DNA of 64,000 nt, taken from Candidatus Falkowbacteria bacterium. Lineage in GTDB: Bacteria; Patescibacteriota; Patescibacteriia; Patescibacteriales; WJLG01. The DNA is taken from assembly GCA_963747695.1 (NCBI GenBank), contig CAVVFV010000010.1:197618-261617 (forward strand), given 5' to 3'. Positions 462 through 60,149 of the stretch are shown piece after piece (within the stretch, counting starts at the first letter, position 1; each line of letters starts with the position of its first letter). A program made the position numbers and the translations under genes. The notes beneath the pieces are model-generated. The model was not told where the DNA came from and did not search any database. It saw only the letters and a list, made by a program, of their open reading frames with translations.

Positions 462-668
462 ATTTTGCCTAAATGAGATATAATAATACTGATGGTTTAC
501 AATAACCTTCAAAAAAGCCCTTATGAAAAATATTATTAAAATTTTCCCTTGTTTTATCGATAATTTCACATTCGCGATCACGGCAAAATTAGTTTTGGCC
601 GATGACAATATCACGGCACTTGTACTTGCGATCGTATCGGCCAAGATGCTTACGCCGAAGATGCGCCA

Positions 669-1148
669 ATGGGTTGGGTAGCGGATGAAACCGGCGAAAC
701 AGGCATTGACTTGCACGACAGTATCGCCCAAGATGCTTGTGCAAATACGGTTCCGAATGTGGCCGGCAGCGATGCCAGCGGCTGGCGAACAAACTGGACC
801 GGATTGGGCGGTAGCGGCCGACCGGTTCCGGATGAGCGACTCCGGATCAACGCCCGTCCGGATACCGGTACCGTCCCGGCCGTCAATTTGAATAATCCTT
901 TAGGCAATACCGTTACCGTTCCCGGACTGGTTCACAATATTATCAATGCCGCGCTCGGCGTGGTCGGATCATTGGCTTTGGTGATGTTCATCTATGGCGG
1001 CTTCACTTGGATGCTTGCCGCCGGCAACGAACAAGCTGTGGAGAAGGGCCGCAACATTTTGGTCTGGGCGGCGGTCGGCCTGGTCGTCATCTTCGCTTCT
1101 TATTCTTTCGTCAACTTCGTCATCAGCGCCATCACCAGCAGCGGCTAG
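669..1148 (+). CDS. type IV secretion system pilin-like protein (TrbC/VirB2-type, CPR T4SS pilin family)
   Basis: The C-terminal half, NPLGNTVTVPGLVHNIINAALGVVGSLALVMFIYGGFTWMLAAGNEQAVEKGRNILVWAAVGLVVIFASYSFVNFVISAI, has the two-helix pilin signature with the AAGN..KG loop. No in-frame signal peptide is present (see findings). Confidence 0.65.
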   Translation: MGWVADETGETGIDLHDSIAQDACANTVPNVAGSDASGWRTNWTGLGGSGRPVPDERLRINARPDTGTVPAVNLNNPLGNTVTVPGLVHNIINAALGVVGSLALVMFIYGGFTWMLAAGNEQAVEKGRNILVWAAVGLVVIFASYSFVNFVISAITSSG

Positions 1149-1243
1149 GATCAATTAAAATTAAAAATGAAAAATTAACAATTTCTCTAAAAAAACGCCG
1201 GATAATTTCCGATGTTTTTTAAATGATAAAAATTACTCATTAT

Positions 1244-1468
1244 AGCGCGCATTGGAAAATTTTCCGTAATCACGCAGCGTATCATTCCCGCTGGCGGGAA
1301 AGGAAGCCGTGCAAAATTGCGTTGTCCGAAGCCCCGCTTCATTTATTAGGATTTTATAAAGGAAAGCGGGGCAAGTATAGCAATTTTGCTAGGCTTCATA
1401 GCGAAGTGATAGGAAATTTGTCCAGCGCGCGATTTTTTGCGCCACTTTTTTTAAAAAAAGTGGCAAAG
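1244..1468 (+). repeat. copy 1 of a 4-copy structured intergenic repeat family
   Basis: Shares these blocks with 28782-29005, 33640-33822 (reverse) and 59957-60138: GCGCGCATTGGAAAATTTT, CCGTGCAAAATTGCGTTG, TAGCAATTTTGCTAGG, TCCAGCGCGC and GCCACTTTTTT..AAAAAAGTGGCAAA. Confidence 0.9.
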
Positions 1469-1582
1469 ATGTTGATTTGTTCATTAGTAATAATGTCGGT
1501 AATAGACCCTCCCCGTCTCGCCCACGCCCAAGGGGACACGGCGGGCTCGGCACCCCTGCCGTGGAGGGGACTTTTTTTACTT

Positions 1583-2803
1583 CTAACTTCTTACTTTGAC
1601 AAATCCCCGTTTACCTTTCTGAATTAAGACTTCTTTGTCCGCCACCGCCATTTCCGCTTCCCGGTCGCTGACAGTTTGATTATCAACCTTCACGCCGCCC
1701 TGTTCGATCAATCGGCCGGCCTCGCTTTTGGATTTGGCCAAGCCGGCTTCAACCAGAAATCAGTTAATTGATAATTTCCGGCTGACATTTTGAAGACTGG
1801 GATATCAGCCGGTACTTCTTTATTCTGCACCGTGGCTTCAAAACCGCGCTGGGCTTTTACCGCTTCATCTTCGCCGCGGACGTTTTGACGATTTCGAAAG
1901 CCATCATTTTTTTATACTCCATCGGATTGACCCCTTTGGCCATCTCGCTTTTGATTTCTTTGATCGCTTCCAGCGGAACCTCGGTCAATAATTCCAAACC
2001 CATCGCGATATGATCATCGGAATAAGACATCGCTTTGCCGTACATATCAGCGGAAGAATCGACAAATTTATGCCATTGCCCTTAGTCTTGGACATGGTCC
2101 GGCCGTCGGGCGCGTCCATCATCTTGTTGGCGCGGACAAATCTTTCTTTGCCCAAATAAGCCTTGGATAATTCACGCCCGGCCAGCATATTGAAAGTCTG
2201 GTCAGCGCCGGCAATTTCCATATCGACGTTCATCGCCACGCCGTCATAACCTTGCATCAAGGGATAAATAAACTCGTGCAAGCCGATCGGATCGCCGGCC
2301 GCCAGACGGCGATCGAACATATCGCGATCAAGCATCTGCTGCACGGTCATATGCGACATCAATTTGATCACTTCGTCCAGCTTTAATTGCGAAAGCCATT
2401 CATGGTTGCGTTTGAATTGGACGGGATTATCGCCGCCGAAATCAATCAGCTGCGCGGCTTGTTCTTTCCAACCCTGTAAATTTTCTTCGATCTCGGCAAC
2501 GGAAAGCATCTTCCGGCCGGATTCCTTATCCGGGTCGCCAACGCGGGCGGTGTAATCACCGACCAGAAAAATCACTTCATGGCCGAGCTGTTGCAGAATG
2601 CGCATCGCCCGGATACCCATCGCGTGCCCGACGTGCAAAAATTTACCGGTCGGATCATAACCTTGGTAAATGCGCAGCCGCTCGCCCGAATACAATTTTT
2701 CCCGGAAGCCGTCAACGGAGGGATAAATCGCCTCGACGCCGCGGGTTAAGAACTTTTCAATCAATTCTTTGTCGACAATCACTTTGGACATATTTTTTAT
2801 CAA
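1583..2803 (-). pseudogene. tyrS: tyrosyl-tRNA synthetase interrupted by three apparent 1-nt frameshifts
   Basis: Class I motifs HVGH and TMSKTKGN lie in ORF 1985-2803. The DSSADMYGKAMSYSDDH..MAFEIVK continuation is in a second frame (ORF 1857-2045). VRGEDEAVKAQRGFEATVQNKEVPADIPVF is in a third frame. The S4-like tail LVEAGLAKSKSEAGRLIEQGGVKVDNQ..VKVRS ends at the stop at 1583-1585 in a fourth reading segment. Confidence 0.8.
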
Positions 2804-2817
2804 AATTATATTTAGCT

Positions 2818-3585
2818 TTAGTTATTATGGCCGTTCCGCCTGAACAGGAAAGGCAGCTGGCCGAATATTTCCCGCCAGACCTGGCAATAGAGCCAGAAAA
2901 TATTTTGCCGGTATTCATCAGGCTGATAGCGATAGCATTTCGCCGTCTTGACCATTTCCCCTTCCGCGTCAGCCTGTCTGCCCTCGATCGCGGCCAGCGA
3001 GCAGGAACCGGTATTGAAATAATTGATCGCTTTGAAGCACCAAATCTTACCGGCTTGCCGCTGCAGGATGACGGCCGGTAATGCCGAAAGGAGAACCGTG
3101 GCCGGAAGCAGAAAACAAGCTAATTTTTCCGAAAAGCCCGGACGGCCAACCTTGATCTCCCTGGAAAAATCATGCCCGTAAAGCAGGCGATGATTTTTCT
3201 TGATCTCAAAAAGGAATAGATTCCGGCCGACCAATTTGGTCATCAATCTGAGCCGGAAGCTGACCGGCTGGAAAGATTCATTCAATTCATCGCGTCCGAT
3301 AACGATCAGATGAATTCCGCCGAAGCTGTTACTGGCCAAGAAGATCCGCTGGATAAAGGCATTGAGCCGAGTCGGATGGATGCCGAAAATTTTCTCTTGC
3401 GCTCTTACGGCGGCGGCGAAAACTTTTTTGGTATCCCGCTTGCCGGGACAAATGATCAAAAGATCGATATCGGAAATGGCCAGATCTTTTTCGCCGACTC
3501 CGGACCCTAAAACTTCTACAGAAATGATCTTGTCTTTCTGATCTCTGACTAACTCTTCAACAAAAAGTTGTGTTCTGTTTTCCAT
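2818..3585 (-). CDS. nucleotidyltransferase (Pol-beta superfamily) domain protein
   Basis: ATG at 3585. The N-terminal motif VLGSGVGEKDLAISDIDLLII matches the GS..DxD NTase signature. The longer ORF reaching 3774 runs through tRNA-Leu and was rejected. Confidence 0.6.
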   Translation of the reverse strand: MENRTQLFVEELVRDQKDKIISVEVLGSGVGEKDLAISDIDLLIICPGKRDTKKVFAAAVRAQEKIFGIHPTRLNAFIQRIFLASNSFGGIHLIVIGRDELNESFQPVSFRLRLMTKLVGRNLFLFEIKKNHRLLYGHDFSREIKVGRPGFSEKLACFLLPATVLLSALPAVILQRQAGKIWCFKAINYFNTGSCSLAAIEGRQADAEGEMVKTAKCYRYQPDEYRQNIFWLYCQVWREIFGQLPFLFRRNGHNN

Positions 3586-4362: not shown

Positions 4363-4475
4363 TGCTAATTTGCGAATGATGCGAATCTACGAATAACCCA
4401 CCCCGCCTCGCCGGGCTCGGCACCCCTCCCAAGAGGGGAATTCGCGCAATTCGCATCATTAGCGAAATTAGCATT
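4361..4475. repeat. long intergenic palindrome of the gcgaat word family with a GC-rich mini-element in its loop
   Basis: AATGCTAATTTGCGAATGATGCGAAT pairs with ATTCGCATCATTAGCGAAATTAGCATT. The loop carries CCACCCCGCCTCGCCGGGCTCGGCACCCCTCCCAAGAGGGG. Confidence 0.8.
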
Positions 4476-10953: not shown

Positions 10954-12087
10954 CTATTTAAATTCTAAATTTGAATCAGCTTTTAATTTGTTCCAAGGCG
11001 TGAAAGCTTTTTTCCGGGCCCGGAAATATCCGGCCGCGGCGATCATCGCCGCGTTATCAGTAGTATACTCCAAAGGCGGGATATGACAAGCCAGGCCCAG
11101 TTTGGCCGCCGCATTCTGGAACTCTTCGCGCAAAACCAGATTGGCGGAAACTCCGCCGGCCAACATCATTGTTTTAATTTTGAATTTTTTGGCCGCCTTA
11201 ACCGCTTTGCCGACCAGTGTTTCTACCACGGCTCGTTCAAATTCATGGCAATACTCCGGAACTTTATTTTTCCAATCCTGATCTTTTTGAATTTTATAAA
11301 GCAAGGCGGTCTTCAATCCGGAAAAAGAAAAATCAAAATTCGGATCATTCAACATCGGACGAGGTAGAATTATCCCCCTCCCGGGGAAGGGTGGCCGCGC
11401 CGCGCGGACGGCTTGCCCCGAGCCCTGTCGAGGGGGGTGTGTGACGGCGTAATCAGCATAGACATTTTTAAATTCTGCCGCTAACTTCGCCACAGCCGGT
11501 CCGCCCGGATAGCCAATACCGAGAAGTTTGGCCGCTTTATCAAATGCTTCGCCAGCCGCGTCATCCCTGGTTTCGCCGATCGTCTGGAATTTGCCATGGC
11601 TTTTCATTAATATAAGCATGGTGTGTCCTCCGGAAACAGTCAGAATCAGCGCCGGGAATTTTATTTTTTCGTTGCCGATAAAATTTGCATAAATATGCCC
11701 TTCAATATGATTAACGGCCACCGCCGGAATTTTCCAGGCATAAGCCAAAGTTCGCGCCGTTTCCACGCCGACCAAAAGCGAAGTAATCAATCCTGGGCCG
11801 ACCGTTACCGCCAGCGCATCAATTGCCGGCTTCGTAGGAACGCAATATTTTGCGTTCTTTTTTTGAGCGCAAGATATTGCGCTCCTACCGATCGCCTCGT
11901 TAATCACCGGCAAAATATTCAAAATATGCTCCCGGGCCGCGATTTCCGGGACGACGCCATTATATTTCCGGTGAATTTCGATCTGCGAAGAAACAACATT
12001 CGACAAAACCTTGACGGCATCTCCTTTGCCTTCAATCACGCTGGCAGCGGTCTCATCACAGCTGGTTTCGATGCCCAAAATTATCAT
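10954..12087 (-). CDS. tsaD: tRNA N6-adenosine threonylcarbamoyltransferase TsaD, carrying two in-frame palindromic insertions
   Basis: MIILGIETSCDETAASV, HIEGHIYA, DFSFSGLKTA and LAGGVSAN motifs. At 377 aa it is longer than the roughly 340 aa I expect for TsaD. Confidence 0.9.
   Translation of the reverse strand: MIILGIETSCDETAASVIEGKGDAVKVLSNVVSSQIEIHRKYNGVVPEIAAREHILNILPVINEAIGRSAISCAQKKNAKYCVPTKPAIDALAVTVGPGLITSLLVGVETARTLAYAWKIPAVAVNHIEGHIYANFIGNEKIKFPALILTVSGGHTMLILMKSHGKFQTIGETRDDAAGEAFDKAAKLLGIGYPGGPAVAKLAAEFKNVYADYAVTHPPRQGSGQAVRAARPPFPGRGIILPRPMLNDPNFDFSFSGLKTALLYKIQKDQDWKNKVPEYCHEFERAVVETLVGKAVKAAKKFKIKTMMLAGGVSANLVLREEFQNAAAKLGLACHIPPLEYTTDNAAMIAAAGYFRARKKAFTPWNKLKADSNLEFK
11370..11445. 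repeat. GC-rich mini-element inserted in frame in tsaD
   Basis: The minus strand reads CACACACCCCCCTCGACAGGGCTCGGGGCAAGCC..CCCGGGAGGGGG. It resembles the intergenic elements at 1505-1575, 4396-4440, 17505-17545 and 35893-36035. It encodes VTHPPRQGSGQAVRAARPPFPGRG. Confidence 0.7.
11834..11888. repeat. nested perfect palindrome inserted in frame in tsaD
   Basis: GTAGGA ACGCAATATTTTGCGT TCTTTTTTTGA GCGCAAGATATTGCGC TCCTAC. It encodes about 17 extra residues (AISCAQKKNAKYCVPT) before the conserved IDALAVTVGPGL. Confidence 0.7.
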
Positions 12088-12215: not shown

Positions 12216-12287
12216 GGTCCCTTCGTCTATCGGTTAGGACACCAGGTTTTCATCCTGGTAAGAGGGGTTCGACTCCCCTAGGGACTA
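12216..12287 (+). tRNA. tRNA-Glu (anticodon TTC)
   Basis: GGTCCCT TC GTCT ATCGGTTA GGAC A CCAGG TTTTCAT CCTGG TAAG AGGGG TTCGACT CCCCT AGGGACT A. No CCA is encoded. Confidence 0.9.
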
Positions 12288-12503
12288 CGTAAAAGAAAAC
12301 ACTCGACCTCAGTCGAGTGTTTTCTTTTACGTAATTTCGGGAGTCGAACTGGTTGCGAGCGAGCTATGAGCCGCGAGGGAACGAGCGGCGAATAAGCAAG
12401 CGACGCCAGACGCGACCAACGGGAGCGTTTGGCGGCAACCCCGGACAAAGGAGCGAAGCGCAATCCGGCGCCGAGCGACTGCGACGACTCCCCTAGGGAC
12501 TTC
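12285..12503 (+). repeat. R1: hairpin, purine-rich GC-rich element and a 17-nt copy of the tRNA-Glu 3' end
   Basis: Nearly identical to 14250-14470. Ends in CGACTCCCCTAGGGACT (12485-12501), the same 17 nt as 12270-12286 inside tRNA-Glu. Confidence 0.9.
12288..12331 (+). terminator. perfect 20-bp hairpin immediately after tRNA-Glu
   Basis: CGTAAAAGAAAACACTCGAC-ctca-GTCGAGTGTTTTCTTTTACG. It is repeated at 14253-14296. Confidence 0.7.
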
Positions 12504-12562
12504 GGATAAATAAAAAATACTGACTTAACGCCAGTATTTTTTATTTATCCGAATTTTTAAAA

Positions 12563-13225
12563 CTATTTTGCAAATCTAAAAGTTTCCACTATGGCTTTCA
12601 TCATCGCATCCTCATTGAGTATATTAGATCCCATTCCCGCCGTCATTGGATCAAATTCATAAATCAAGTTTCCTTTTTTAACAAAGTAGGAATAAGACCT
12701 CCCGTAAATAGAATCTTGGGAATAAAATGACATAGCCTCATCGCTTGTAGGAATATCAACTTTGTTTAAATTTTCTGCTTTAGCCCCCTGACTAGAATAT
12801 GCTTTTATAATCCAATCTTCAAGTGACAGATTACTTACATTTTCGGATGCCGATATATTTACTGGGATATCAAAATCTCCACTAGACTTGGGGAAAATTT
12901 GCATGGAACCGCCATTTTGCAAAGATTTATCGCTTGATGTAAACGATACTATCCAATCCTTAGGAGCACTTATTTTATAACCATACTGTTTGTTTTCGTA
13001 TGTTTGCCAATCGTTTTTATCGATTTTTACCGCATCGATTTCAACTACGGTTGGGTGCTGTGAAATCGTCGAGGAAGCGATTGCAGACACCGGAGTAGAA
13101 GTGCTTATAGTTTCCTTTTTAACTTCTGGAACAGCTGAATGAGATTGATATTTAACAAAAATGATCAAACCCGCGACGATAATCAAAACAATGCCTACGC
13201 AAATAAAAATAATGTTTTTTTTCAT
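12563..13225 (-). CDS. membrane-anchored extracytoplasmic protein (partner B1 of the CHAP-like lipoprotein)
   Basis: N-terminal TM helix IIFICVGIVLIIVAGLIIFV, a Ser/Thr linker, then the DWQTYENKQYGYKISAPKDW motif. Paralog of 14530-15204. Confidence 0.6.
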   Translation of the reverse strand: MKKNIIFICVGIVLIIVAGLIIFVKYQSHSAVPEVKKETISTSTPVSAIASSTISQHPTVVEIDAVKIDKNDWQTYENKQYGYKISAPKDWIVSFTSSDKSLQNGGSMQIFPKSSGDFDIPVNISASENVSNLSLEDWIIKAYSSQGAKAENLNKVDIPTSDEAMSFYSQDSIYGRSYSYFVKKGNLIYEFDPMTAGMGSNILNEDAMMKAIVETFRFAK

Positions 13226-13314
13226 AGAATGAAACTTTTTATTATGATAAATTTATAAATAATTAAAATAGGGGGCGGTGTTTTCTTGAACACCGCCCGA
13301 TTAATAACCGATCA

Positions 13315-13971
13315 CTATTGGATGTGATAAACATTGTAGCCCAGTTTTTGGTTAGCCGACGTAGGCCTGGTAAATGCGTAAAAGTCGGAATACGACACGA
13401 AGTGGGTAGAGATATAATTTTCTTTTGGCGGATTGTTTGCCGGTGCCGCGACAAAATTACAATCCAGCATGTAAAAACCTTTCACGCCGCCCACTGTTAC
13501 GTTTCCGTTTAGAAAAAAAGAAGTGTGCTGAGTAGGGTGATAGGTACCGTCAGCCCAGCGAACATTCCAATACATTTGGATAATGTCAGCTGGGACGCAA
13601 TATTCGACCATTGTGCTTCTGCCTTGGATCGGCATACATGGGGCATCCTGCCACATGCTCATGTTATTCGGATAATATGCCGGAATCTGGACGGCTTGTC
13701 CGCTTGCCGTCAAAACGACATGAGACACCCAACCCCAACACTGCCCCGTGTTGTGGCCACCAATTTCGGAATTTGCTTTGGCAAGAATCTTACTGTCCCT
13801 AGTCGCTTGCGGCAATGCTTCCCACGTCTTCATTGCCGTTGATTGCGTGCAACCAGAAGAAAGTGCTGCTATGGGTTGTGCGGATTGTTCTTTACTGCTA
13901 TTTACGGGATTATTACTGCATCCCAAAACAACAAACAGAAAAGCAAGTGAAACAAATAGATTGGTTTTCAT
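13315..13971 (-). CDS. lipoprotein with a putative CHAP/NlpC-P60-like papain-fold domain (A1)
   Basis: Lipobox VVLGC. Candidate catalytic Cys in GQCWGWVSHV, His in PTQHTSFFL, and polar third residue in YMLDCNF. Paralog of 15286-15969. Confidence 0.45.
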   Translation of the reverse strand: MKTNLFVSLAFLFVVLGCSNNPVNSSKEQSAQPIAALSSGCTQSTAMKTWEALPQATRDSKILAKANSEIGGHNTGQCWGWVSHVVLTASGQAVQIPAYYPNNMSMWQDAPCMPIQGRSTMVEYCVPADIIQMYWNVRWADGTYHPTQHTSFFLNGNVTVGGVKGFYMLDCNFVAAPANNPPKENYISTHFVSYSDFYAFTRPTSANQKLGYNVYHIQ

Positions 13972-14249
13972 GCCAATCCTCCTTTGGTTTAGAATGGTTT
14001 AGTTTCCTGACAATAGTAATCAATTTTGAAAAGAACGAGCGTAAAAGAACCGGAACTAACTGGTATTCGCTTTCATCTCAATCTCCTTGTTAAGATTATA
14101 CGATTTATTAACTATAATTAATAGGTTAGCAAAAAAAAAATGGCCTTTGTCAAATTTTTCAATAATTTAAGCCTAAAATTTTACTGGCACCAACCTTTTC
14201 CATTTCCGAATATCCTGGATGATGGGGTGTAAATTCTCAATACAGTAGT

Positions 14250-14470
14250 CTACGTAAAAGAAAACACTCGACCTCGGTCGAGTGTTTTCTTTTACGTAAT
14301 TTCGGGAGTCGAACTGGTTGCGAGCGAGCTATGAGCCGCGAGGGAACGAGCGGCGAATAAGCGAGCGACGCCAGACGCAACCAACGGGAGCGTTTGGCGG
14401 CAACCCCGGACAAAGGAGCGAGGCGGTTTCCGCCGCCGAGCGACTGCGACGACTCCCCTAGGGACTACGG
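14250..14470 (+). repeat. R2: second copy of the hairpin, GC-rich element and tRNA-Glu 3'-end core
   Basis: Core CGACTCCCCTAGGGACT at 14450-14466. Differs from R1 at a handful of positions, mostly clustered in one internal hairpin. Confidence 0.9.
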
Positions 14471-14529
14471 ATATAAAAAAGACTGATACTATCAGTCTTT
14501 TTTATTTGAATCGTTCCAATTTGTTCGAA

Positions 14530-15204
14530 CTATTTTGTAAACCTAAAAGTTTCAATTATTGCCTTCATCATTGCATACTGATCAAGTAAATCACTATTCA
14601 AATCCATGGCACCAAAACCGAAAACATCATCGCCCTTTTTAACATAAGCACCATAAATCCCGTGTGACAATCCAACAAATGCTCCGTCGCTCGACGGAAT
14701 GTTTATCTCCATTATTTGCGCGGGGTTATCCTTCGCTTCCTGGCGATATTTTTTAAGCCAAACTTCTGGTGATGAAGTGTCATGAATAATGCCAATTGCT
14801 GTAGGAGCATTAAATTTTTCATCGCTATTTGGCATTATCAATAACTCGGTGCCATTTAAAAGATCGAGTTTCCCCGTAAAATTCCATCCCGCCGGAGCAC
14901 TAATTTCAAAACCATACTTTTCATCCTTGTAAATTTGCCAATTATTTTTATCTATTTTCACAGCGTTTATTTCTGCAAAGGTTGGATATGCTAAATTTGG
15001 AGATGAAGATGCTATCGTCCCCAAATTTGAGCTGCTAGCAACATTGTTCTGCTGGTTAATTAAAGAACTCGAAGAAGCAATTTTATTGACCTGATTTGCC
15101 CTATTCTTTTGATAACTTTTTTTCAATGGATACTCTTTTAAAACAACAACTCCGACTACAAGTAAAATAACTGCCAGCCAAATTAAGATTGTTTTTTTCT
15201 TCAT
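14530..15204 (-). CDS. membrane-anchored extracytoplasmic protein (partner B2)
   Basis: TM anchor ILIWLAVILLVVGVVVL, motif NWQIYKDEKYGFEISAPAGW, and a C-terminus AMMKAIIETFRFTK matching B1. Confidence 0.6.
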   Translation of the reverse strand: MKKKTILIWLAVILLVVGVVVLKEYPLKKSYQKNRANQVNKIASSSSLINQQNNVASSSNLGTIASSSPNLAYPTFAEINAVKIDKNNWQIYKDEKYGFEISAPAGWNFTGKLDLLNGTELLIMPNSDEKFNAPTAIGIIHDTSSPEVWLKKYRQEAKDNPAQIMEINIPSSDGAFVGLSHGIYGAYVKKGDDVFGFGAMDLNSDLLDQYAMMKAIIETFRFTK

Positions 15205-15285
15205 ATAAATATAAAAATTATTTAAATTTAAAAATTGGAATGGTGTATTCTGCTAAACACCATTCCAGCTAACTAATTGCTATTG

Positions 15286-15969
15286 TCACTGAATCTGATA
15301 TACCGAAAAACCCAAAAGTGGATTATTCACGGTGGCGGTGGTAAATAATTTGAAATCCGCGTAGGTCACTTTATGAACACTAACCGTGTACTTCGGGCTA
15401 AAATTACAATCAATCCACATCATGCAATTTTTAGTGTCGTCCGTATAGCCACTTGTATTACTTACAACAATTGCAGTGTGTGGGCCTTGGGGACCCAAAG
15501 ATCCGTTGGCTAACCTTGGTGTCCACCAAAGCTGAAATATTTGGCCAGGCGCAACCCAAGGAAGTGATGAAGCATTGCTATAAAGCTTTACGACTTGGCT
15601 GTTAAAGCAATCTGCACTTAACCATGAATAATAGTTGGGGGTGCCGCCATGATCACAAGTATTGGCACCGATCGTGATGCCGCTAACCGGCAAAACAACA
15701 TACGATTGCACCCAAGGCTTACACTCAACGGGCGGAATGTAGTTACTATAGTTGTTACCATTCATTGCTTGCGCAAAGGCCAAAAGCTTCGCATTTTTTT
15801 GCGGTTGCGACAGTAAATTCCAGGCCTGCAAGGTAGGCGTTATCGTACAAGTGGTGGCTACTGCTGCAAGTGGTTGAACCAACTGTTCTTTACTGCTATT
15901 CACGGGATTATTACTGCATCCCAAAATTGCAGCTGACAAGACAAGAGCAAAACAAAGATATTTTTTCAT
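15286..15969 (-). CDS. lipoprotein with a putative CHAP/NlpC-P60-like domain (A2)
   Basis: Lipobox AILGC followed by the same SNNPVNSSKEQ as A1. Candidate Cys in VECKPWVQSYV, His in GPHTAIVV, then MWIDCNF. Confidence 0.45.
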   Translation of the reverse strand: MKKYLCFALVLSAAILGCSNNPVNSSKEQLVQPLAAVATTCTITPTLQAWNLLSQPQKNAKLLAFAQAMNGNNYSNYIPPVECKPWVQSYVVLPVSGITIGANTCDHGGTPNYYSWLSADCFNSQVVKLYSNASSLPWVAPGQIFQLWWTPRLANGSLGPQGPHTAIVVSNTSGYTDDTKNCMMWIDCNFSPKYTVSVHKVTYADFKLFTTATVNNPLLGFSVYQIQ

Positions 15970-16309
15970 ATCCAGCCCTTTGGTTGCTGAGTTGATGGTT
16001 TAATGATCTGACAATAGTAATCAATTTTTAAAAGAACAAATACTGAAAGAACATTAGCTTGAATCCATTTTTTCGCCTCCCTGTTAGAATTATACGGTTT
16101 ATTAATGACTATTAACAGAGTAGCAAAAAAAAAATGACATTCGTCAAATTTTTCAATAATTTAAGCCTAAAATTTCACTTATATAAATATCATCCATTTC
16201 TTAATATCCGCGATAATAGGATGTAAATTCTCAATACAGTAGTCTACTGAAAATAAAATACCGCCACGCAAATTCGCGGGCGGTATAAATTATTCTGCTA
16301 AAAAAGAGC

Positions 16310-17421: not shown

Positions 17422-17565
17422 AAATTTTTCAACGCCGATTAATTTTAAAAAACCGTCGGCGCCCCCTGCTTAAAAATTATATTTAAATACTTTGTTTATG
17501 ATAATTTAATCGAGGGATCCCTCGACAGGGCTCGGGATGACAATGTTTCTAAAATCGAAACATTG

Positions 17566-21741: not shown

Positions 21742-21816
21742 GCGGGTATCGTATAGCGGTTATTATGCCAGTTTTCCAAACTGGTCATAGGGGTTCGACT
21801 CCCCTTACCCGCTCCA
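21742..21816 (+). tRNA. tRNA-Gly (anticodon TCC), CCA encoded
   Basis: GCGGGTA..CCAGT TTTCCAA ACTGG..AGGGG TTCGACT CCCCT TACCCGC TCCA. Confidence 0.9.
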
Positions 21817-23302
21817 AAGAGAAACAAGACCTATTTTCCAGAAATTTTTCACGCGCTTCGCGAAGCGAAGCGTAAGGTTTAATGGGCACAAATTGAATTT
21901 TTTTATCTTTCAAAAACAGGTTCGAGCCGGAAATTTTTACGGCTGAAGATTTTTTATCCAAAAGTGATGATGAAATGGCGTTTTCGCCTATATTTACTGC
22001 GTCTTTTATCCATTCCCGCATCGGTTCGAGCCAAACTATAGACCCTCTCTTAAAATCGACGATTTTCTCCTCCAGCGACTTCTTGCGAGAGAGAAGACTC
22101 GCCTTCTCCGTGAGGTATGCCTCGCGCTCTATGTCTTGGTCTAAATATGCGGTAAGAAGGCGCTGGAGCTTCGCCTCGATAGCTATAACTTCTTCTCTCA
22201 TCTCATGACTTACAGTTGCTGATAATTGGGCGGCCTCTTTTGCATCTTTGTCGGTCATTTTCAAGAGTTCTGCCGCCCAATCGGAAGGCATAGCATATTC
22301 TTTTAGGACATCAGTCAATTGCGCGATCAATTCCTTGTCTTTCATGTACGGTTGTGAGCAAGCCCCTTTCTTTTTGGTGCAGTGATAGTAAGTATATTCA
22401 TGGGTCTTGCCGGATACCTGCCTTTTTATCTTATGCTCAGCCGTAATGGAACAGCCGCACTCGCCGCACCTAAATAGCCCGCATAGCGGCTGAGGTTCGT
22501 TTTTAATCTTGTCGTGCGGTTTGCCGCGATCGGCAATCACAGCCTGCACGCGGTCAAATAATTTTTTGGAAATGATTGACTCGTGTGTGCCTTCGTAGAC
22601 TTCGCCGGCATATTGGAACAGGCCGCAATAAAAAATGTCGGATAATATGCGCGATATTCTGTCCCGCTTGAATATGCTTCCGGTGTCGGCGCGCACGCCT
22701 TTCTCCGCGAAGAACGCGGAGATATCTTCAAGCCGCGAGTTGCCCTTGGCGTAAAGTTCAAAGGCGGCAATCACCACCTTCGCCGTTTTTCTCTCCACGA
22801 TAATGCGTTTCGTCCGAACGTCGTTCAAGTATCCGAGCGGGGCGCGCGAAGGATATTCGCCTCTCTTAACTTTTTCGTGTAGTCCGCGTTTAGTGTTAGT
22901 GCTCAAGTCGATGATGAACTGGTTAGCCATGCCAAACTCCATGCTCATAACCAGCGTGTTGTCGGTCGAGCGATAGCTCCGGTCATGGGTTTGGATATGT
23001 TGGATAGTTCCCCGCTGTAAAAACCAGCTGATTTGTCCGCCGTCGATCGGATTGCGGGCGAGACGATCAAGTTTCCAGCAAACAATGCCTTGCGCCTCGC
23101 CTTTTTCAAGGCGCGAAAGCATCTCGCCAAATACAGGGCGTCCAGGTCTCTTGGCTGATTGTTTTTCGATAAACTCCTCAACGATATTCAACCCTTCGGT
23201 CTTGGCCAGCGCCCGCAAGACGGCCAGCTGATCGTCAATAGAACGGACTTGCTTGTCTTCAACGTCAGTCGATTTGCGGGCGTAGAGGAAATAATTTGGC
23301 AT
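21785..23302 (-). CDS. large serine recombinase (resolvase/invertase N-domain, recombinase domain, zinc ribbon and coiled coil)
   Basis: YARKSTDVEDKQVRSIDDQ carries the catalytic Ser motif; also WKLDRLARN and CGECGCSITAE..YYHCTKKK. The stop codon lies inside tRNA-Gly. Confidence 0.9.
   Translation of the reverse strand: MPNYFLYARKSTDVEDKQVRSIDDQLAVLRALAKTEGLNIVEEFIEKQSAKRPGRPVFGEMLSRLEKGEAQGIVCWKLDRLARNPIDGGQISWFLQRGTIQHIQTHDRSYRSTDNTLVMSMEFGMANQFIIDLSTNTKRGLHEKVKRGEYPSRAPLGYLNDVRTKRIIVERKTAKVVIAAFELYAKGNSRLEDISAFFAEKGVRADTGSIFKRDRISRILSDIFYCGLFQYAGEVYEGTHESIISKKLFDRVQAVIADRGKPHDKIKNEPQPLCGLFRCGECGCSITAEHKIKRQVSGKTHEYTYYHCTKKKGACSQPYMKDKELIAQLTDVLKEYAMPSDWAAELLKMTDKDAKEAAQLSATVSHEMREEVIAIEAKLQRLLTAYLDQDIEREAYLTEKASLLSRKKSLEEKIVDFKRGSIVWLEPMREWIKDAVNIGENAISSSLLDKKSSAVKISGSNLFLKDKKIQFVPIKPYASLREAREKFLENRSCFSLERVRGVEPL
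21812..21985. repeat. IR-A, left arm of a perfect 174-bp inverted repeat
   Basis: Exact reverse complement of 23754-23927 by manual alignment. Covers the last 5 nt of tRNA-Gly and 58 recombinase codons. Confidence 0.9.
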
Positions 23303-23404
23303 AAATTTTATATTTCAATATTTTTTAGAAGTGTTATAATATCTACACAACGATGACACATTTCCATTATAACGCTATTATGAAAAATAGTAAATAACTA
23401 CTAT

Positions 23405-23611
23405 ATGCCAAAGGGGTCAATTATTTCCGGGAATATAAAAAAATACCGAGCCAAACTCGGTATTTCTCAAGACAAGCTGTCGAAAATGTCCGGTGTCGAT
23501 TACAACACGATCATTAAAATTGAATCGGGCGTGACTTACAACCCGCGGGTTGAAACATTGAAGAATATTGCCGATGTTTTTAAAGTCGGCATTGATGATT
23601 TGATGAGATAA
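23405..23611 (+). CDS. XRE-family helix-turn-helix transcriptional regulator
   Basis: IKKYRAKLGISQDKLSKMSGVDYNTIIKIESG is a typical HTH_3. The gene is divergent from the recombinase. Confidence 0.8.
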   Translation: MPKGSIISGNIKKYRAKLGISQDKLSKMSGVDYNTIIKIESGVTYNPRVETLKNIADVFKVGIDDLMR

Positions 23612-23753
23612 AAATATGCAGACGGATAAAGAAACAAATAAAATTTATAAAGTCTTTGAAATAATTTTGGCGGTTGGGAGTTCGCCGTTTTCTCAACTCG
23701 GCGAAGATGCATAATGCGCGCACGGGATGGGCGGGGCAAGCATTATACAATTT

Positions 23754-23927
23754 GAAAACGCCATTTCATCATCACTTTTGGATAAAAAATCTTCAGCCGT
23801 AAAAATTTCCGGCTCGAACCTGTTTTTGAAAGATAAAAAAATTCAATTTGTGCCCATTAAACCTTACGCTTCGCTTCGCGAAGCGCGTGAAAAATTTCTG
23901 GAAAATAGGTCTTGTTTCTCTTTGGAG
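23754..23927. repeat. IR-B, right arm of the 174-bp inverted repeat
   Basis: Encodes the same 58 codons (ENAISSS..CFSLE) on the plus strand within ORF 23727-23972. Confidence 0.9.
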
Positions 23928-24557
23928 ACGCTAAGAAACGAAATCCGAACAATTTATACCCAAATTTCTTGACGCTTTCGCCACCTGTTCAACCCCTTAT
24001 CTACCCCGTTTGTTAGAACTCATCTTGGCCAAAACGGCGGCGATTTACCGTTTCCTCTGGCAACTATTGAAGCTAACCAATAATAAAGAAAAAAACAGGC
24101 TCCTACCTGTTTTTTCTTTTATTGATTGGGGTTGGGAAAAGTTTAAATCAAATTATCGAAAAAAGTGGGCGTTATGCTTTTTTTTGTTTTCCCAAAAACA
24201 AAAGCCTCATCGATGGTGGAAACAAGAATTGACAAATACCAATAGGTCTTCTTTCAAGAAACTGCGGACGAACTTTGTTCGCCGGCAATTTCTTGAAAGA
24301 AAGTTGCCGCCTGGCGATAGAAAAGAAATTCCTCGCTACTGTCGGGCGGACAAATTTGCCCTTAAGACTCCTCACCGGGAAACCGCGGCTCCCCGAAATA
24401 TCGGAATCAATAGAAAAATAATAGTCAAAATCTTGTTAGTTATCAATGAAGCTTTCTGATTATATTGTAGCAAAAAATTGCCGGTTAATAAATACCAAAC
24501 CTGACACTAACTTAAGCCAAAATATCCGGCTTGCCAAAATAAAATTTTGCCCCTATA

Positions 24558-28367: not shown

Positions 28368-28760
28368 ATGAAGAATTTTAACGGCGTAATAATCGAGGAG
28401 AGTCTCGAGGATAAGGATGTTTTGAAAAAAATAAATATTCTAAAAACTAAGATTGAACAAGTTACCGAGAAACATAAAACTCCCTGGATTAAACAATGGA
28501 CCTTACATACGGTTGAAGTGTCAGAAAACCGGGCTGGCGATGTCGCAGAGGAAATTAGTAAATCTCTGGATTCTAAACATAATTGGTACGCTGACTTCAA
28601 AAACAATTCTTATCACTATATAATCTTTCACGGTAAAGTTTTTTTCATCGACAGAAAAAGCAGAGAACAATACGACAAAGCTAAAAAATACGGGATCTCT
28701 TTGGGCATTCCCGAATATCAGGTGGACTTCCACCCAAACATTAAAGAATGGGAGAGATAA
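28368..28760 (+). CDS. hypothetical protein, tightly adjacent to pth (2 nt gap)
   Basis: The ATG lies 2 nt after the pth stop. 130 aa, no recognised motif. Confidence 0.5.
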   Translation: MKNFNGVIIEESLEDKDVLKKINILKTKIEQVTEKHKTPWIKQWTLHTVEVSENRAGDVAEEISKSLDSKHNWYADFKNNSYHYIIFHGKVFFIDRKSREQYDKAKKYGISLGIPEYQVDFHPNIKEWER

Positions 28761-28781
28761 ATTAAAACAAAACAACATTGC

Positions 28782-29005
28782 TGCGCGCATTGGAAAATTT
28801 TGGATAAGACGCGCAGCGTATCACCGCCGCTGGCGGGACAGGGAAACCGTGCAAAATTGCGTTGCTTGAGGAGGCGCCGCGCCGACGAGGTTAGCAATTT
28901 TGCTAGGTTTCATAGCGGAGCGTCCCAAAATTTGTCCAGCTCGCAGTTTTCTTGCCCCGTCATTTTTGCGGGGTTGCGCCACTTTTTCTAAAAAAGTGGC
29001 AAAAT
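28782..29005 (+). repeat. copy 2 of the 4-copy structured repeat family
   Basis: Same conserved blocks as copy 1, plus two extra hairpin modules. Confidence 0.9.
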
Positions 29006-29011
29006 AATTCT

Positions 29012-29407
29012 ATGGTGCGAAACGTAGCCGTAATAATTCTCTTCGACGAAGATAAAAAAATATTGCTTCAGCACCGCGCCGATAACGCCTTGAGACTTCC
29101 GGGCTATTGGGCATTTTTTGGTGGCGGAATTGAGCCGGGCGAGACCCCCGAACAGACGGTGAGACGGGAGTCTTTGGAAGAATTAAATTACCCGCTTACC
29201 AATCCCAAATTAATAATGAAACAGAATTTTATCTCGCACGGCGACGATAATGAAAAATATGTTTTTATGGAAGAATATGATCCCAATAAAAAAATCGCTT
29301 TGGGCGAGGGACAAGGTTTAGGCTGGTATCATCTTGCGGAAGCCAGCAAATTAAAAATCTTTGGCCACGATCTTGATGTTCTTGAATATATCGCGGACAA
29401 ATACTAA
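29012..29407 (+). CDS. NUDIX hydrolase
   Basis: Nudix box GGGIEPGETPEQTVRRESLEELN. The ATG at 29012 is preferred because upstream codons belong to the repeat. Confidence 0.8.
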   Translation: MVRNVAVIILFDEDKKILLQHRADNALRLPGYWAFFGGGIEPGETPEQTVRRESLEELNYPLTNPKLIMKQNFISHGDDNEKYVFMEEYDPNKKIALGEGQGLGWYHLAEASKLKIFGHDLDVLEYIADKY

Positions 29408-33639: not shown

Positions 33640-33822
33640 CTTTTGCCACTTTTTTTTGGAAAAAAGTGGCGCAAAAAAACGCGCGCTGGACAAATTTTGG
33701 GACGCTCCGCTAGGAAACCTAGCAAAATTGCTATACTTGCTGACGCGGCGTCAGCTTCGGACAACGCAATTTTGCACGGTTTCCACGCTACGCGTCTTAT
33801 CCAAAATTTTCCAATGCGCACT
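33640..33822 (-). repeat. copy 3 (reverse orientation) of the 4-copy structured repeat family
   Basis: The reverse complement aligns block by block with copy 4. Lies between the convergent topA and NERD genes. Confidence 0.9.
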
Positions 33823-33880
33823 ACAAAGAATATTTTATAAAAAATCTTCTACAATTTACTGACAATTCTTTAAAACGTCA

Positions 33881-35500: not shown

Positions 35501-35893
35501 TTAATATTTAAAAAGTTCCTGTTTCTTTTCTTCGGGTTTGAACACGGCCGCTTGTCCGGCCTCGTCGGCCAAATCAATCTTCACGCCCCCGATATTCTTG
35601 GCAAGAAAATTATAGAAGGCGGCGGCGATCAAGCCGACGAGCCAGCCGATTGCTCCGGCAATCAGAGCCACAGCCAGAGCGATCAAAAAATTCAAACCCA
35701 AGCTGGTTGAAATGTAAATCAACAGCTTGCCGGCGGTTTGTTTCTCCAGCAAAACTAAAACCAAAGCATAAATCGAGGCGGCAAAGCTGATGATAAAACC
35801 GAACAGCGCGTAAATCAGCCCGGCAATATTGGCTACGGATAATTTTTTAATTTTCTTAATCTCTTGCATAATTTCTGTAATATTTACTCCCAT
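35501..35893 (-). CDS. small polytopic membrane protein
   Basis: Three predicted TM segments rich in Ala/Ile/Leu/Gly; 130 aa. Confidence 0.45.
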   Translation of the reverse strand: MGVNITEIMQEIKKIKKLSVANIAGLIYALFGFIISFAASIYALVLVLLEKQTAGKLLIYISTSLGLNFLIALAVALIAGAIGWLVGLIAAAFYNFLAKNIGGVKIDLADEAGQAAVFKPEEKKQELFKY

Positions 35894-36077
35894 CCATTAC
35901 ACACCCCGCCTCGCTCACGCTCGGCACACCTCTTTATAAAGGGGACTTCGCAACGAGGCAATAACTTCTTATCAATTCCCCTCTATTAAGAGGGGTGGCA
36001 GGCCGCCTCGGCCTGACGGGGCGTGTCATTCGCGGTTTTCGCGGCATTCGCGTTCATTCGCGGATTAGCATCATATT

Positions 36078-40590: not shown

Positions 40591-43242
40591 CTATTTTATG
40601 GCGGAAAATTGCTCTCTTAGCCTGTTTAATTCCATCTGCGCTTTAGCCAACTTTTCCTTCTCGGCCGCCACCACTTTCTCCGGCGCTTTGCCGACGAATT
40701 CCTGGTTGGATAATTTGCCGTTCAAGGCGGCAACGAATTTTTCCAGATTGGCGATCTCTTTTTCTAATCTCACCTTTTCCTTTTCCGTATCGATAGCGCC
40801 CAAAAGATAAATCTCAATTCCGCCGACCGCGGCATAGATCGCGCCGGAAATTTTTTCGCCTTTTTCCGAAATTTTCAATTCGCCGATGCCGGTCCGCAAA
40901 CTCTTAATCAAAACTTCGTTTTCCTTGATCAGCTTCGCCTTTTCACCGGCGTATATCACTGCCTCGACTTTCTTCGCCGGCTCGACTTTGTTTTCGGCTC
41001 GGGCATTCCTGATTGCCATGATCACCTCTCGCGCCAGGTCAAAACTGTTGGAGACTTGCAACTCATCGGTGCCGACCATCGGCCACGATTCGACCATTAA
41101 CAATTTATCGTTGAATTTATGCCAAATCGCTTCCGAGACAAAGGGCGCGAAAGGGTGCGCCAGCTTTAAAACCTTGCGCAAAACTTCCAGTAAGATGGCT
41201 TTATTATTTTCGCCGTCTTCGAATTTGCTCGCCTCCAAATACCAGTCAGCCAGATCATTCCAGACAAAATCAACCAGCTTTTCGCCGGCCTGGGAAAAAG
41301 CCAGCGCTTCGATGTTCTTGGTGATACTCGCCACCGCGTCATTGATCCGGAACATGATCCAAACGTCGGCGGTCGTCAAATTATTGACGTCGATCTTCCG
41401 CTTAAACTTTCCCTCGGCGCGGCTCAAGATATAGCGGCTGACATTCCAAAGTTTATTGACGAAATTCCGCTGCGTCTCGATTTTTTCCCAAGACATCCGC
41501 GAATTGTTGCCGGGCGTACTGCCGATCAATAACGATAGCCGCAACGCATCCGTGCCGTATTTGGCAATCACATCCAGCGGATCAACGCCATTGCCTTTGG
41601 ACTTGGACATTTTCTTGCCATGCTCATCCAAAATATTGCCGTGCAAATAAACATCGGAAAAAGGTTTTTCACCCAAAGCATAATAGGACATCAAGATCAT
41701 TCTTGATACCCAAAGCGTCAATATTTCAAAACCGGTTTCCAGGACCGCGGTCGGATGGAATTTGGCTAAATCCCCTGATTTTACGCCATTTTTATAAGTA
41801 TCCGGCCAGCCCAAAGTCGAGAAAGTCCACATCCCGGAAGAAAACCAAGTATCCAGCGTATCCTCATCCTGCACCCAACCTTTTCCTTTTGGGACCGCCT
41901 CTCCCACAAAAATCTCTTCTTTCTTATCTCTTATCTCTTCTCTTTTATAGTAGGCTGGTATCCGGTGTCCGTACCAAATCTGCCGCGACACGCACCAGTC
42001 ATGCAGATTATTCATCCAGCGCAAATATTGATCATGAAATCTTTCCGGCGTGAATTTTATTTCTCCGCTCGAAGCCGCCGTAATCGAAATTTCCTTCAAT
42101 GACTTGCCGTCGAATTTATCCAATTTCTTATCAACATCGACAAACCATTGTTTCGATGGCAGCGGCTCGACCGGAGTATCGCAGCGATAGCATTGCGACA
42201 AATTATTGGTGATGTCTTCTTCTTTTTCCATCAAGCCGGCTTCGTTCAATCTCTCCACGACTTTTTCCCGCGCCTGGGCCGCCGGCAAGCCGGAATATTC
42301 TCCAAAACCCGGATTGATCCGAGCATCTTCGTCGATCACTTTGATCATTTCCAAATCATATTTCTGCGACATTTGGTAATCGACCATCGAGTGCGCCGGC
42401 GTCACACCCAAAGCTCCGGTGCCAAACGCCATATCCACGCCGATATCGGCAATGACTTTTATTTTCAAAGGCACGCCGACGAAATTTACTTCAAAAATCG
42501 AGCCGATATATTTTTTATAGCGCTCGTCGCGCGGATTGACGGCGACGGCCGAATCGCCCAATTTTGTTTCCGGCCGGGTGGTGGAAATTGCGATGGGGAA
42601 ATCCTTCGCATATTTAAAAGTATATAATTTCGCCGTCTGTTCCTTATATTCAAGCTCGTCATCGGCCAAAGTTGATTTGCACCTCGGACACCAATTGACC
42701 ACCCGTTCGCCGCGATAGATCACGCCATCGTTATACATATCGATGAACATTTTTCTTACCGCCTTGCCGCGTTGTTCATCAAGCGTGAAAGCCAAGCGCG
42801 ACCAATCAAGCGACGCGCCCATTTTTTTGATCTGATTCAAAATAGTATTTTGCGTCACCGCCACGAACTTTTTCGCTTCTGCCAAGAATTTATCCCGGCC
42901 CAAGTCATGCCGGGTTTTTCCGGTTTCTTTAAAAATTCTTTTCTCCACCACATTTTGCGTGGCGATCGCCGCGTGATCCGTGCCCGGAATCCACAACGCG
43001 CGAAAACCATTCATCCTTTTATAACGAATCAATAAATCTTCCACCGCGACCATCACGGCGTGGCCGACGTGCAATTTATCAGTAATATTCGGTGGCGGCA
43101 GAACGATCGTGTATGATGGCGCATCGGCCGGCAGCTTCAAATTATCCGGATTAAAAAATCCCGAATCTTCCCATTCCTTATTAATAGCATCCTCGTAATC
43201 CGCCGGGTTGTACTGTTTTTCTATTTCGGCTTCTTTGTTCAT
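40591..43242 (-). CDS. valS: valyl-tRNA synthetase
   Basis: 883 aa. HIGH-type LHVGHAV, KMSKSKGN, CP1 editing region, and a C-terminal coiled coil. Confidence 0.95.
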   Translation of the reverse strand: MNKEAEIEKQYNPADYEDAINKEWEDSGFFNPDNLKLPADAPSYTIVLPPPNITDKLHVGHAVMVAVEDLLIRYKRMNGFRALWIPGTDHAAIATQNVVEKRIFKETGKTRHDLGRDKFLAEAKKFVAVTQNTILNQIKKMGASLDWSRLAFTLDEQRGKAVRKMFIDMYNDGVIYRGERVVNWCPRCKSTLADDELEYKEQTAKLYTFKYAKDFPIAISTTRPETKLGDSAVAVNPRDERYKKYIGSIFEVNFVGVPLKIKVIADIGVDMAFGTGALGVTPAHSMVDYQMSQKYDLEMIKVIDEDARINPGFGEYSGLPAAQAREKVVERLNEAGLMEKEEDITNNLSQCYRCDTPVEPLPSKQWFVDVDKKLDKFDGKSLKEISITAASSGEIKFTPERFHDQYLRWMNNLHDWCVSRQIWYGHRIPAYYKREEIRDKKEEIFVGEAVPKGKGWVQDEDTLDTWFSSGMWTFSTLGWPDTYKNGVKSGDLAKFHPTAVLETGFEILTLWVSRMILMSYYALGEKPFSDVYLHGNILDEHGKKMSKSKGNGVDPLDVIAKYGTDALRLSLLIGSTPGNNSRMSWEKIETQRNFVNKLWNVSRYILSRAEGKFKRKIDVNNLTTADVWIMFRINDAVASITKNIEALAFSQAGEKLVDFVWNDLADWYLEASKFEDGENNKAILLEVLRKVLKLAHPFAPFVSEAIWHKFNDKLLMVESWPMVGTDELQVSNSFDLAREVIMAIRNARAENKVEPAKKVEAVIYAGEKAKLIKENEVLIKSLRTGIGELKISEKGEKISGAIYAAVGGIEIYLLGAIDTEKEKVRLEKEIANLEKFVAALNGKLSNQEFVGKAPEKVVAAEKEKLAKAQMELNRLREQFSAIK

Positions 43243-43507
43243 AAAAGCTTGGGCATATAATGCGAATACTGCGAATTTTTCGCGAATACTACGAACGCTT
43301 AGCGGATCGAATTAATCATTTTTCGCAAAATTTAATGCGCGCATTCAGCTAATATTTCATCTAAATTATAATAATAGATTATCAAAACCGAGCGGTTTTG
43401 GCAAGGAGAAATCAATTACAAATTATAAATTATAAATTAGAAATTTTCCCCGGAAAGGTTGTGTTTTAAGCCGTTTATTATTATACTGTAATGATGCCCA
43501 ATTATCA

Positions 43508-59917: not shown

Positions 59918-59956
59918 TAATATTACGTCACATCAAAAAATTAATTAATTACCTTG

Positions 59957-60138
59957 CAGCGCGCATTGGAAAATTTTGGATAAGACGCGCAGCGTAGAAA
60001 CCGTGCAAAATTGCGTTGTCCGAAGCCAGCGCCTCGCTGGCAAGTATAGCAATTTTGCTAGGTTTCATAACGGAGCGTCCCAAAATTTTCCAGCGCGCAG
60101 TTTTTTGTGCCACTTTTTTCTAAAAAAAGTGGCAAAGA
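59957..60138 (+). repeat. copy 4 (shortest, core version) of the 4-copy structured repeat family
   Basis: All conserved blocks are present without the extra modules. Confidence 0.9.
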
Positions 60139-60149
60139 TATTGATAATA

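Follow-up and report, generated by a model that had tools for sequence, protein, structure and literature searches.

The tsaD gene within a 64-kb stretch of a Candidatus Falkowbacteria genome (64,000 nt in full, called the window here) contains two extra segments, an inverted pair of short palindromes (element (i)) and a GC-rich repeat (element (ii)). Both are most probably short dispersed non-coding repeats which landed in tsaD and were retained by preservation of the reading frame and by loops tolerant of additional residues. Repetitive extragenic palindromic sequences (REPs) with a GTAG tag, REP dimers (REPINs) and REP-associated tyrosine transposases (RAYTs) were reportedly characterized by Nunvar in 2010 and by Bertels and Rainey in 2011.

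GTAG-type REPs and REPINs are defined by their GTAG head, by a short palindrome, by inverted dimers and by the RAYT associated with them (Di Nocera et al. 2013, PMC3733652). Intragenic copies have been documented in Opitutus, Thauera, Xanthomonas and others, and in several phyla intragenic dimers within tRNA synthetases and repair genes encode 20-30 residues. The survey covered Proteobacteria, Cyanobacteria, Chloroflexi and the Planctomycetes-Verrucomicrobia-Chlamydiae (PVC) group; the Candidate Phyla Radiation (CPR) was not included (PMC3733652). Element (i) resembles these repeats in many respects. Its GTAG head is followed by a stem of 8-9 bp and a loop of 4 nt, inside the range given for GTAG REPs (stem 5-13 bp, loop 2-20 nt, pairing maintained), its units pair inverted with a short spacer in between and can form a single long hairpin, and across related metagenome contigs the copies of its family are dispersed and mostly intergenic, with the TAG often ending the upstream gene as its stop codon, as reported for GTAG REPs of other phyla. 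About 20-30 residues are encoded by the copies occasionally found within genes, and RAYT-like genes are flanked by units (REPtron), the latter in related metagenome loci only. It is unlike them in being a new sequence family in a phylum outside the survey, and many of its single units pair the GTAG with a terminal CTAC, whereas in the survey the tag is an unpaired one. Element (i) can be called a REPIN-like doublet of GTAG-tagged REPs, from a Patescibacteria family that has RAYT partners, and is probably not a relative of the Rickettsia palindromic elements (RPE).

RPE, repeats of about 100-150 bp (Ogata et al. 2000, 2002, as cited in PMC10969869), had served as the precedent in the original prediction. 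The comparison is apt for the way such an insertion works: in a bacterium with a reduced genome, palindromic repeats lie in frame in housekeeping genes that are unrelated to each other, at positions predicted to be compatible with the fold. The tsaD elements resemble RPEs in function, not by membership. RPE-4 and RPE-6 are CGTC-tagged whereas element (i) belongs to the GTAG class, RPEs have no dedicated transposase, and the tsaD elements, with 55 and about 75 nt, are set apart by description and by phylum. The phenomenon is also less exotic than had been supposed, since in-frame REPs are known outside Rickettsia (PMC3733652). [quoted passage not shown] No description of such insertions for CPR bacteria was known to the original prediction, and a search of the accessible literature for CPR/Patescibacteria together with intragenic repeats, palindromic elements, RPE or MITEs agrees with this: no report came up, which is an absence of hits and not a proof.

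The tsaD gene and its product

The 377-aa product is a full-length TsaD (Kae1/TsaD/Qri7, PF00814) with the ASKHA fold and the HxxxH + D metal site. PF00814 was present on all of its closest database relatives, and the named ones were TsaD of Patescibacteria. Solved TsaD chains in the PDB matched it at E = 4e-79, and its AlphaFold model superposed on the TsaD of E. coli, Aquifex and Thermotoga with target-normalised TM-scores of 0.8-0.88 (0.88 for 4wq5 in Foldseek). A scan of genome contigs with the TsaD protein yielded distant TsaDs only (37-53% identity). The ratio dN/dS of the tsaD core was 0.08-0.11 versus four orthologs, thus the gene is under purifying selection. The protein is, as had been noted, longer than the approximately 340 aa expected: basal relatives have 335-345 aa and lack both extra segments. 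Both inserts keep the reading frame, with the ORF intact and the catalytic motifs conserved. The gene and its three variable loops, defined in an alignment of 120 homologues with 54-84% identity, are as follows.

10954..12087, minus strand: intact tsaD coding sequence, 377 aa, HxxxH (H127, H131) and D344 conserved
Site 1, after INEAL: basal length 14 or 6-8 residues, longer than basal in about half of the homologues
Site 2, after HIYANFI: basal length 5-8 residues, longer in about a quarter
Site 3, before LPRPM: basal length 9-14 residues, longer in more than half
11824..11889, minus strand: site-1 loop segment, codons 67-88 (GRSAISCAQKKNAKYCVPTKPA), between helix 47-69 and strand 91-95
11377..11469, minus strand: site-3 extra segment, codons 207-237 (NVYADYAVTHPPRQGSGQAVRAARPPFPGRG), in place of the 4 codons that the empty allele has

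Element (i), a REP doublet

Element (i) had been described as a nested near-perfect palindrome, and the fold analysis bore this out. Its two arms of 24 nt each are 88% complementary with 7 T between them, and each arm by itself forms an 8-bp hairpin. The fold has an energy of -33.6 kcal/mol on the mRNA strand and -36.9 kcal/mol on the other (z = -7.75 and -6.9), and none of 200 shuffles folded equally well. Read by codon, the element consists of two inverted copies of GTAGGA[A/G]CGCAA-N4-TTGCG[C/T]TC, both starting with GTAG on their own strand.

11834..11888, no strand: element (i), REP doublet (REPIN-like), 55 nt, GTAG heads outward, an architecture that recurs in metagenome loci
11834..11857, plus strand: REP unit A, GTAGGAACGCAATATTTTGCGTTC, read on the coding strand as ..N A K Y C V P T, with the same sequence as the corresponding unit of the L001 tsaD
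11858..11864, no strand: T7 spacer between the units, A7 on the mRNA, codons Q-K-K
11865..11888, minus strand: REP unit B, GTAGGAGCGCAATATCTTGCGCTC, peptide G R S A I S C A

Unit B is the G-C stem variant of unit A, hence the doublet is a heterodimer. The two units match units in other genes and in intergenic DNA at 24/24 and 22/24 nt. The tsaD ortholog of the metagenome contigs L001/L002 (protein P0010) carries both units at the same position with a 27-nt spacer; between the units of doublets lie 7 nt in the window versus 10-28 nt in relatives. The REP arms are 92-100% identical between the window and L001, the surrounding gene 78% on the nucleotide level. The doublet of the P0010 lineage is present in independent JGI and ENA assemblies (L001, L002, L076, L096, L099) and is not an assembly artefact. 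No Rfam family covers element (i) or element (ii); only sub-threshold matches to microRNA precursors were obtained, as expected of a generic hairpin. If the insert is translated, junction peptides that cover SAISCAQK or the YCVPTKPAIDALAVTVGPG... junction are predicted.

The REP family in related metagenome contigs

Metagenome contigs were scanned with the REP unit pattern GTAGGARCGCAA-N4-TTGCGYTC, which was present in at least 120 stretches; all counts for the family given here refer to the matches listed. Units either stand alone, as perfect 28-nt palindromes (GTAGGAACGCAA-N4-TTGCGTTCCTAC), or form doublets of 55-76 nt, of which 16 further ones were found in metagenome loci. The density is 1-2 REP clusters per about 5-14 kb in the related contigs. 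The variable stem position covaries (A-T in 112 units, G-C in 45, mismatched in 5), and 64 of 162 units also end in CTAC, with the GTAG tag base-paired there. Of 83 clusters, 34 fall within ORFs of 120 aa or more, and the family also occurs between genes. Hosts confirmed by Pfam are ValRS (two), LeuRS, PheRS-alpha, two Mur ligases, MnmA, Dus, ComEC, a methyltransferase and a DHH protein. A single unit lies in frame in a DHH/DHHA1 gene on the contig that carries the P0010 tsaD doublet (L001/L002). The ValRS of contig L055 is 76% identical to that of the window, thus the contigs hosting the REPs belong to relatives of the window's organism. The pattern had no match in viral contigs.

Within genes the units are read in two ways only, as VGTQxxAF(L/P) or as (G/R/C/S)RNAxxCVPT. 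The third frame, as read from the sequence, holds the TAG of the GTAG head, and a copy within a gene can persist only when inserted in one of the two remaining frames. For 10 of the 162 units this TAG is the stop codon of the upstream gene (HscA-like, FtsA, GatA-like; L044, L069, L066, L072), and a different gene follows, ferredoxin after HscA and FtsZ after FtsA. Split genes or bypassing at such TAG-frame REPs were not seen among the metagenome loci listed.

Some host genes contain further repeats. In the DHH gene of L001 (15150-15180) another perfect 9-bp hairpin, GGCAGAGTC-N10-GACTCTGCC, lies in frame about 45 nt upstream of the REP unit; it differs from the REP in sequence and encodes SGQRQSPQGETLPEP. 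The window ValRS (40594-43311, minus strand) reads MVGTDELQV at 41044-41097, where the L055 ValRS has the REP-encoded DVGTQNLAFLP and the L094 ValRS a REP in the other frame (CGNAKFCVPT). This peptide of the window may be a decayed REP relic, with only 14/24 nt matching. The L094 ValRS (493-3450) moreover contains in-frame tandem TRKHENTK repeats and a 26-residue GC-rich insert, both of which are missing in the window ValRS and in L055.

Link to RAYT-type transposases

A RAYT-type Y1 transposase gene lies beside a REP in 9 of 120 loci. The encoded proteins have about 175-225 aa, an HUH motif (MPNHIHGII) and a C-terminal Y motif, and match the NCBIfam model REP_Tyr_transpos (NF047646) at E = 2e-18 to 3e-14. 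On contig L134 the transposase ORF (846-1523) has REP units on both sides (853 and 1471). A database search with the REP-adjacent transposases retrieved 2828 homologues at E <= 1e-10, the named ones annotated as 'transposase' of Parcubacteria, Moranbacteria or Patescibacteria, or in JGI as 'REP element-mobilizing transposase RayT'. A RAYT gene was also looked for in the window and at the tsaD loci, and none was found. By analogy with the described systems we infer that element (i) was mobilised by a RAYT; the REPs would be moved in trans as single-stranded hairpins by this tyrosine (Y1/HUH) transposase.

RAYT-like genes are themselves hosts of in-frame REP-type units (L134 846-1523, L146 1348-1899, L157 591-1148, L047 5312-5965). 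These units are located between the HUH motif and the C-terminal half and encode GVGTQDFAFLH, NVGTQNVGTQNFAFLR and GRNAPRRV...ENAPRRVPT. The lengths of RAYT homologues span 130 to 260 aa.

Element (ii), a GC-rich dispersed repeat

Element (ii) is an island of 75-77% GC in a gene of about 45% GC. A scan of the window for GC spikes was unspecific, as the genome has 46% GC with many GC-rich coding stretches. A profile was built from the copies of the element and used with nhmmer, which groups tsaD 11368-11436 with four intergenic copies of the window.

~11368..11444, minus strand: element (ii), full-length copy of a GC-rich dispersed repeat of ~70-77 nt, from the 5' (T)CACACACCCC box to the 3' GGGAGGGGGATAATT end
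11417..11434, minus strand: 18-nt module CCCTCGACAGGGCTCGGG within element (ii), also in L001 and L161
17519..17536, plus strand: the same 18-nt module on its own, not a full family member
1506..1576, plus strand: intergenic copy (nhmmer)
4392..4444, plus strand: intergenic copy (nhmmer), translation ..RHPSQEGN
35883..35950, plus strand: intergenic copy (nhmmer)
35972..36030, minus strand: intergenic copy (nhmmer), inverted, adjoining the copy at 35883..35950

In relatives, further copies were found just upstream and downstream of tsaD, and an intergenic copy of L001 (7196-7266) aligns over the full length with the tsaD element, from the (T)CACACACCCC box to the GGAGGGG-ATAATT end. An exact 16-mer is common to element (ii) and 17520-17535, for which the estimated chance expectation is about 3e-5 in 64 kb. 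The family also occurs in frame at TsaD sites 1 and 3 of relatives, in differing frames (TPRxRGxxTPLERG vs THP...HPSxEG), and in MetRS, CysRS, UvrC and LeuRS; the peptide ..RHPSQEGN of the translated intergenic copy at 4392..4444 recurs at site 3 of the homologues P0008 and P0015. On these alignments element (ii) is firmly placed in a second, unnamed GC-rich repeat family. The original prediction had related it to intergenic elements at four places. Three of these were recovered by nhmmer, 35893-36035 as two copies; the fourth, 17505-17545, was rejected as a family member since the common part is the 18-nt module only.

The element had also been called a palindromic repeat. Its repeat nature stands by the full-length alignment with L001, the palindrome is not significant and element (ii) is weakly palindromic. 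It has a 7-bp terminal inverted repeat (CCCCCTC/GAGGGGG) and short internal hairpins. A CGTC precedes a short GC palindrome in some copies (window tsaD, the 36030 copy, site 1 of L003), with stems of 4-6 bp only, and in other copies CGCC replaces the CGTC. CGTC-type REPs have a stem of 8-9 bp after the tag, a loop of 4-5 nt and a tail of 3 bp; element (ii) was assigned neither to them nor to the MITEs, as its features point clearly to neither. A comparison of filled and empty alleles revealed no target-site duplication for element (ii), and a parent IS was not found. In the preferred explanation element (ii) is a GC-rich repeat of about 70 nt with two hairpins, a member of a second family that is mostly intergenic in this genome.

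TsaD loops as insertion sites

The ortholog alignment placed both segments in loops that are short in many close relatives, and in the AlphaFold model both inserts are low-confidence unstructured loops (residues 70-86 and 210-236 coil, predicted confidence pLDDT <50). Site 1 comprises 23 loop residues in the window versus 14 or 6 in basal relatives. The 17 residues that element (i) was thought to add therefore apply to the basal loop of 6 (+17), with only 9 gained over the basal loop of 14. The extra segment before LPRPM was likewise confirmed, the figure of about 25 residues depends on the reference: 31 codons in the window stand against 4 in the empty allele of L161 (+27). Neither insert is a clean addition, as a few ancestral loop codons were lost. 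Site 2 is empty in the window TsaD.

Among TsaD relatives of 70-84% identity the sites are empty or filled differently, and element (ii)-type inserts are present at the same tsaD site in L003 and L162. All three loops vary among the 120 homologues, and the inserted peptides are of several recognisable repeat-derived types. The three loops form hot spots of insertion, occupied by repeats of many different types. Other inserts at these loops (P0024, P0029, P0036, P0038, P0065, P0066, P0082, P0105) include ..SARVRVKSA.. and the AT-rich FQISNFQF and KSEILNPKQI, the latter two looking like translated AT-rich repeats. In a scan of the window for perfect hairpins no other gene had a comparable insert; hairpins of at least 9 bp were nearly all intergenic and terminator-like.

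The interface of TsaB and TsaD is a four-helix bundle, and a helical insertion of TsaD contacts TsaE (PMC6009658). From the model, helix 47-69 preceding site 1 would be alpha1 of this bundle, and site 3 appears to lie within the helical insertion that contacts TsaE, both being assignments made without superposition.

Weighing of the explanations

In the proposed mechanism the repeats would survive inside tsaD by keeping the frame and by falling into loops that tolerate extra residues, and the inserts would most likely be translated, adding about 20 and about 30 disordered-loop residues to an otherwise normal TsaD. A stop-free frame together with a disordered loop is well supported as the mechanism of tolerance. 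The inserts are best read as tolerated selfish DNA rather than as adaptive domains, neutrality being deduced. Several observations weigh against the origin of both segments from dispersed repeats. Element (ii) has a fold z of -0.5 and folds no better than composition-matched shuffles, because GC-rich shuffles fold equally well. The 64-kb window holds a single copy of the REP family, the tsaD doublet, and unlike the described GTAG REP systems it contains no RAYT gene; the RAYTs matched elsewhere score 53-67 bits, below the NCBIfam equivalog cut-off of 80 bits, and their Pfam Y1_Tnp matches are borderline. Site 1 has neither a definable target-site duplication nor a clean empty site; in the closest relatives it is filled by a different element, and about 9 codons of the ancestral loop have been lost. 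The doublet-bearing proteins P0001, P0007 and P0010 are not monophyletic in a neighbour-joining tree of the core, where each of them has a sister with a different site-1 state. Yet the three lineages have a common 3' junction, which in the tsaD genes of the window and L001 reads ..CCTACG(AAG)CCGGC(A/T)AT(T/C)GAT. Tree and junction point in opposite ways, and for the doublets at site 1 both a single origin spread by recombination and repeated insertion into a hot spot are possible.

Ordinary lineage-specific loop expansion, through low-complexity drift or slippage and with a coincidental resemblance to repeats, would account for three loops that vary in length across all 120 homologues, for simple low-complexity peptides among the inserts and for an element (ii) without a fold signal beyond composition. 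This explanation is very improbable. Slippage leaves the identity of the element (i) units with those of other genes and intergenic DNA as a coincidence, as well as the end-to-end alignment of element (ii) with intergenic copies and the 16-mer common with 17520-17535, and sister orthologs have empty sites. Both segments match dispersed repeats that also lie between genes, and on these sequence matches a loop expansion appears largely refuted. No more credible is an assembly artefact by palindrome-seeded chimeric joins, or a decaying pseudogene, although the window locus is known from a single assembly and the exact protein is the one member of its cluster. The frame was kept twice, all catalytic motifs are conserved, dN/dS is about 0.09, a relative has the orthologous REP doublet in five independent assemblies, and L003 and L162 contain element (ii)-type inserts at the same site.

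Insertion of repeats is also the starting point of two other explanations. The inserts might have been exapted since, either as hairpins acting in cis (pausing, mRNA stability, a nuclease or gyrase site) or as loops contacting TsaB, TsaE or the tRNA. This is unlikely on present evidence. The stem of the REP covaries and its arms are more conserved than the surrounding gene; such conservation of the arms is equally expected if the family is kept uniform by a transposase and was inserted recently. Site 1 directly follows the long helix 47-69 and site 3 appears to lie in the TsaE-contacting helical insertion, positions that would suit a contact; the loops, however, are predicted to be disordered, spacer and insert content vary freely among close relatives, and many relatives are without any insert. 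Alternatively, the inserts might escape translation by ribosomal bypassing or by removal from the mRNA. The 'byp' elements of some yeast mitochondria, derived from GC clusters, are a precedent for bypassing, and the mRNA hairpin of element (i) is a strong one, still we consider such an escape exceedingly improbable. Every intragenic REP copy listed uses one of the two stop-free frames, and where the TAG is in frame the upstream gene ends and a different gene comes next. Stop-free frames only and no split genes are what one would expect of inserts that have to be read through. Translational bypass and split genes were rejected accordingly, as TAG-frame REPs merely terminate the upstream gene. 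Retention of dispersed repeats in tolerant loops thus is the preferred explanation.

Other repeats in the window

Three further repeat structures were observed at other positions.

21742-23935: region with a tRNA gene (21742-21813) abutted by the gene of a 505-aa large serine recombinase (21785-23302, minus strand); an inverted repeat of 182 nt and 98% identity (21804-21985 / 23754-23935) duplicates the 3' end of the recombinase gene
1220-1476, 28758-29012, 33642-33840 and 59934-60145: four copies, one of them inverted, of a dispersed repeat of ~200-250 nt
12285-16261: about three tandem repeats of a ~2-kb unit with a gene of ~220 aa and a 48-nt perfect hairpin terminator, pieces 70-95% identical

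The region 21742-23935 looks like an integrated or invertible element. Each copy of the ~200-250-nt repeat has a GCCAC-T/A-run-GTGGC hairpin; a MITE, a small RNA or a promoter module are candidates for its nature.

Implications for Patescibacteria

The tiny, streamlined genomes of Patescibacteria tolerate selfish repeats in essential genes, as is the case in Rickettsia. The repeats provide an origin on the nucleotide level for the odd Pro/Gly-rich or Cys-containing loops that enlarge many CPR proteins, and the alignments, phylogenies, domain boundaries and structure predictions made for these proteins can be led astray by such inserts. The pair of REP and RAYT is a testable candidate for a mobile system. 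Should the pattern hold as widely as the cases of TsaD and the synthetases suggest, the inserts would represent a natural map of insertion-tolerant loops in essential enzymes. A wider proposal is conceivable, though rather doubtful: Patescibacteria might harbor an active REP/RAYT system and a further GC-rich hairpin family, both inserting repeatedly and in frame into a few surface loops of essential translation-related enzymes (TsaD with three hot spots, aminoacyl-tRNA synthetases, Mur ligases, the RAYT gene), and some of these loops or mRNA hairpins might have been co-opted. Protein-length variation across Patescibacteria would then have a major source in selfish repeats, one not described so far.

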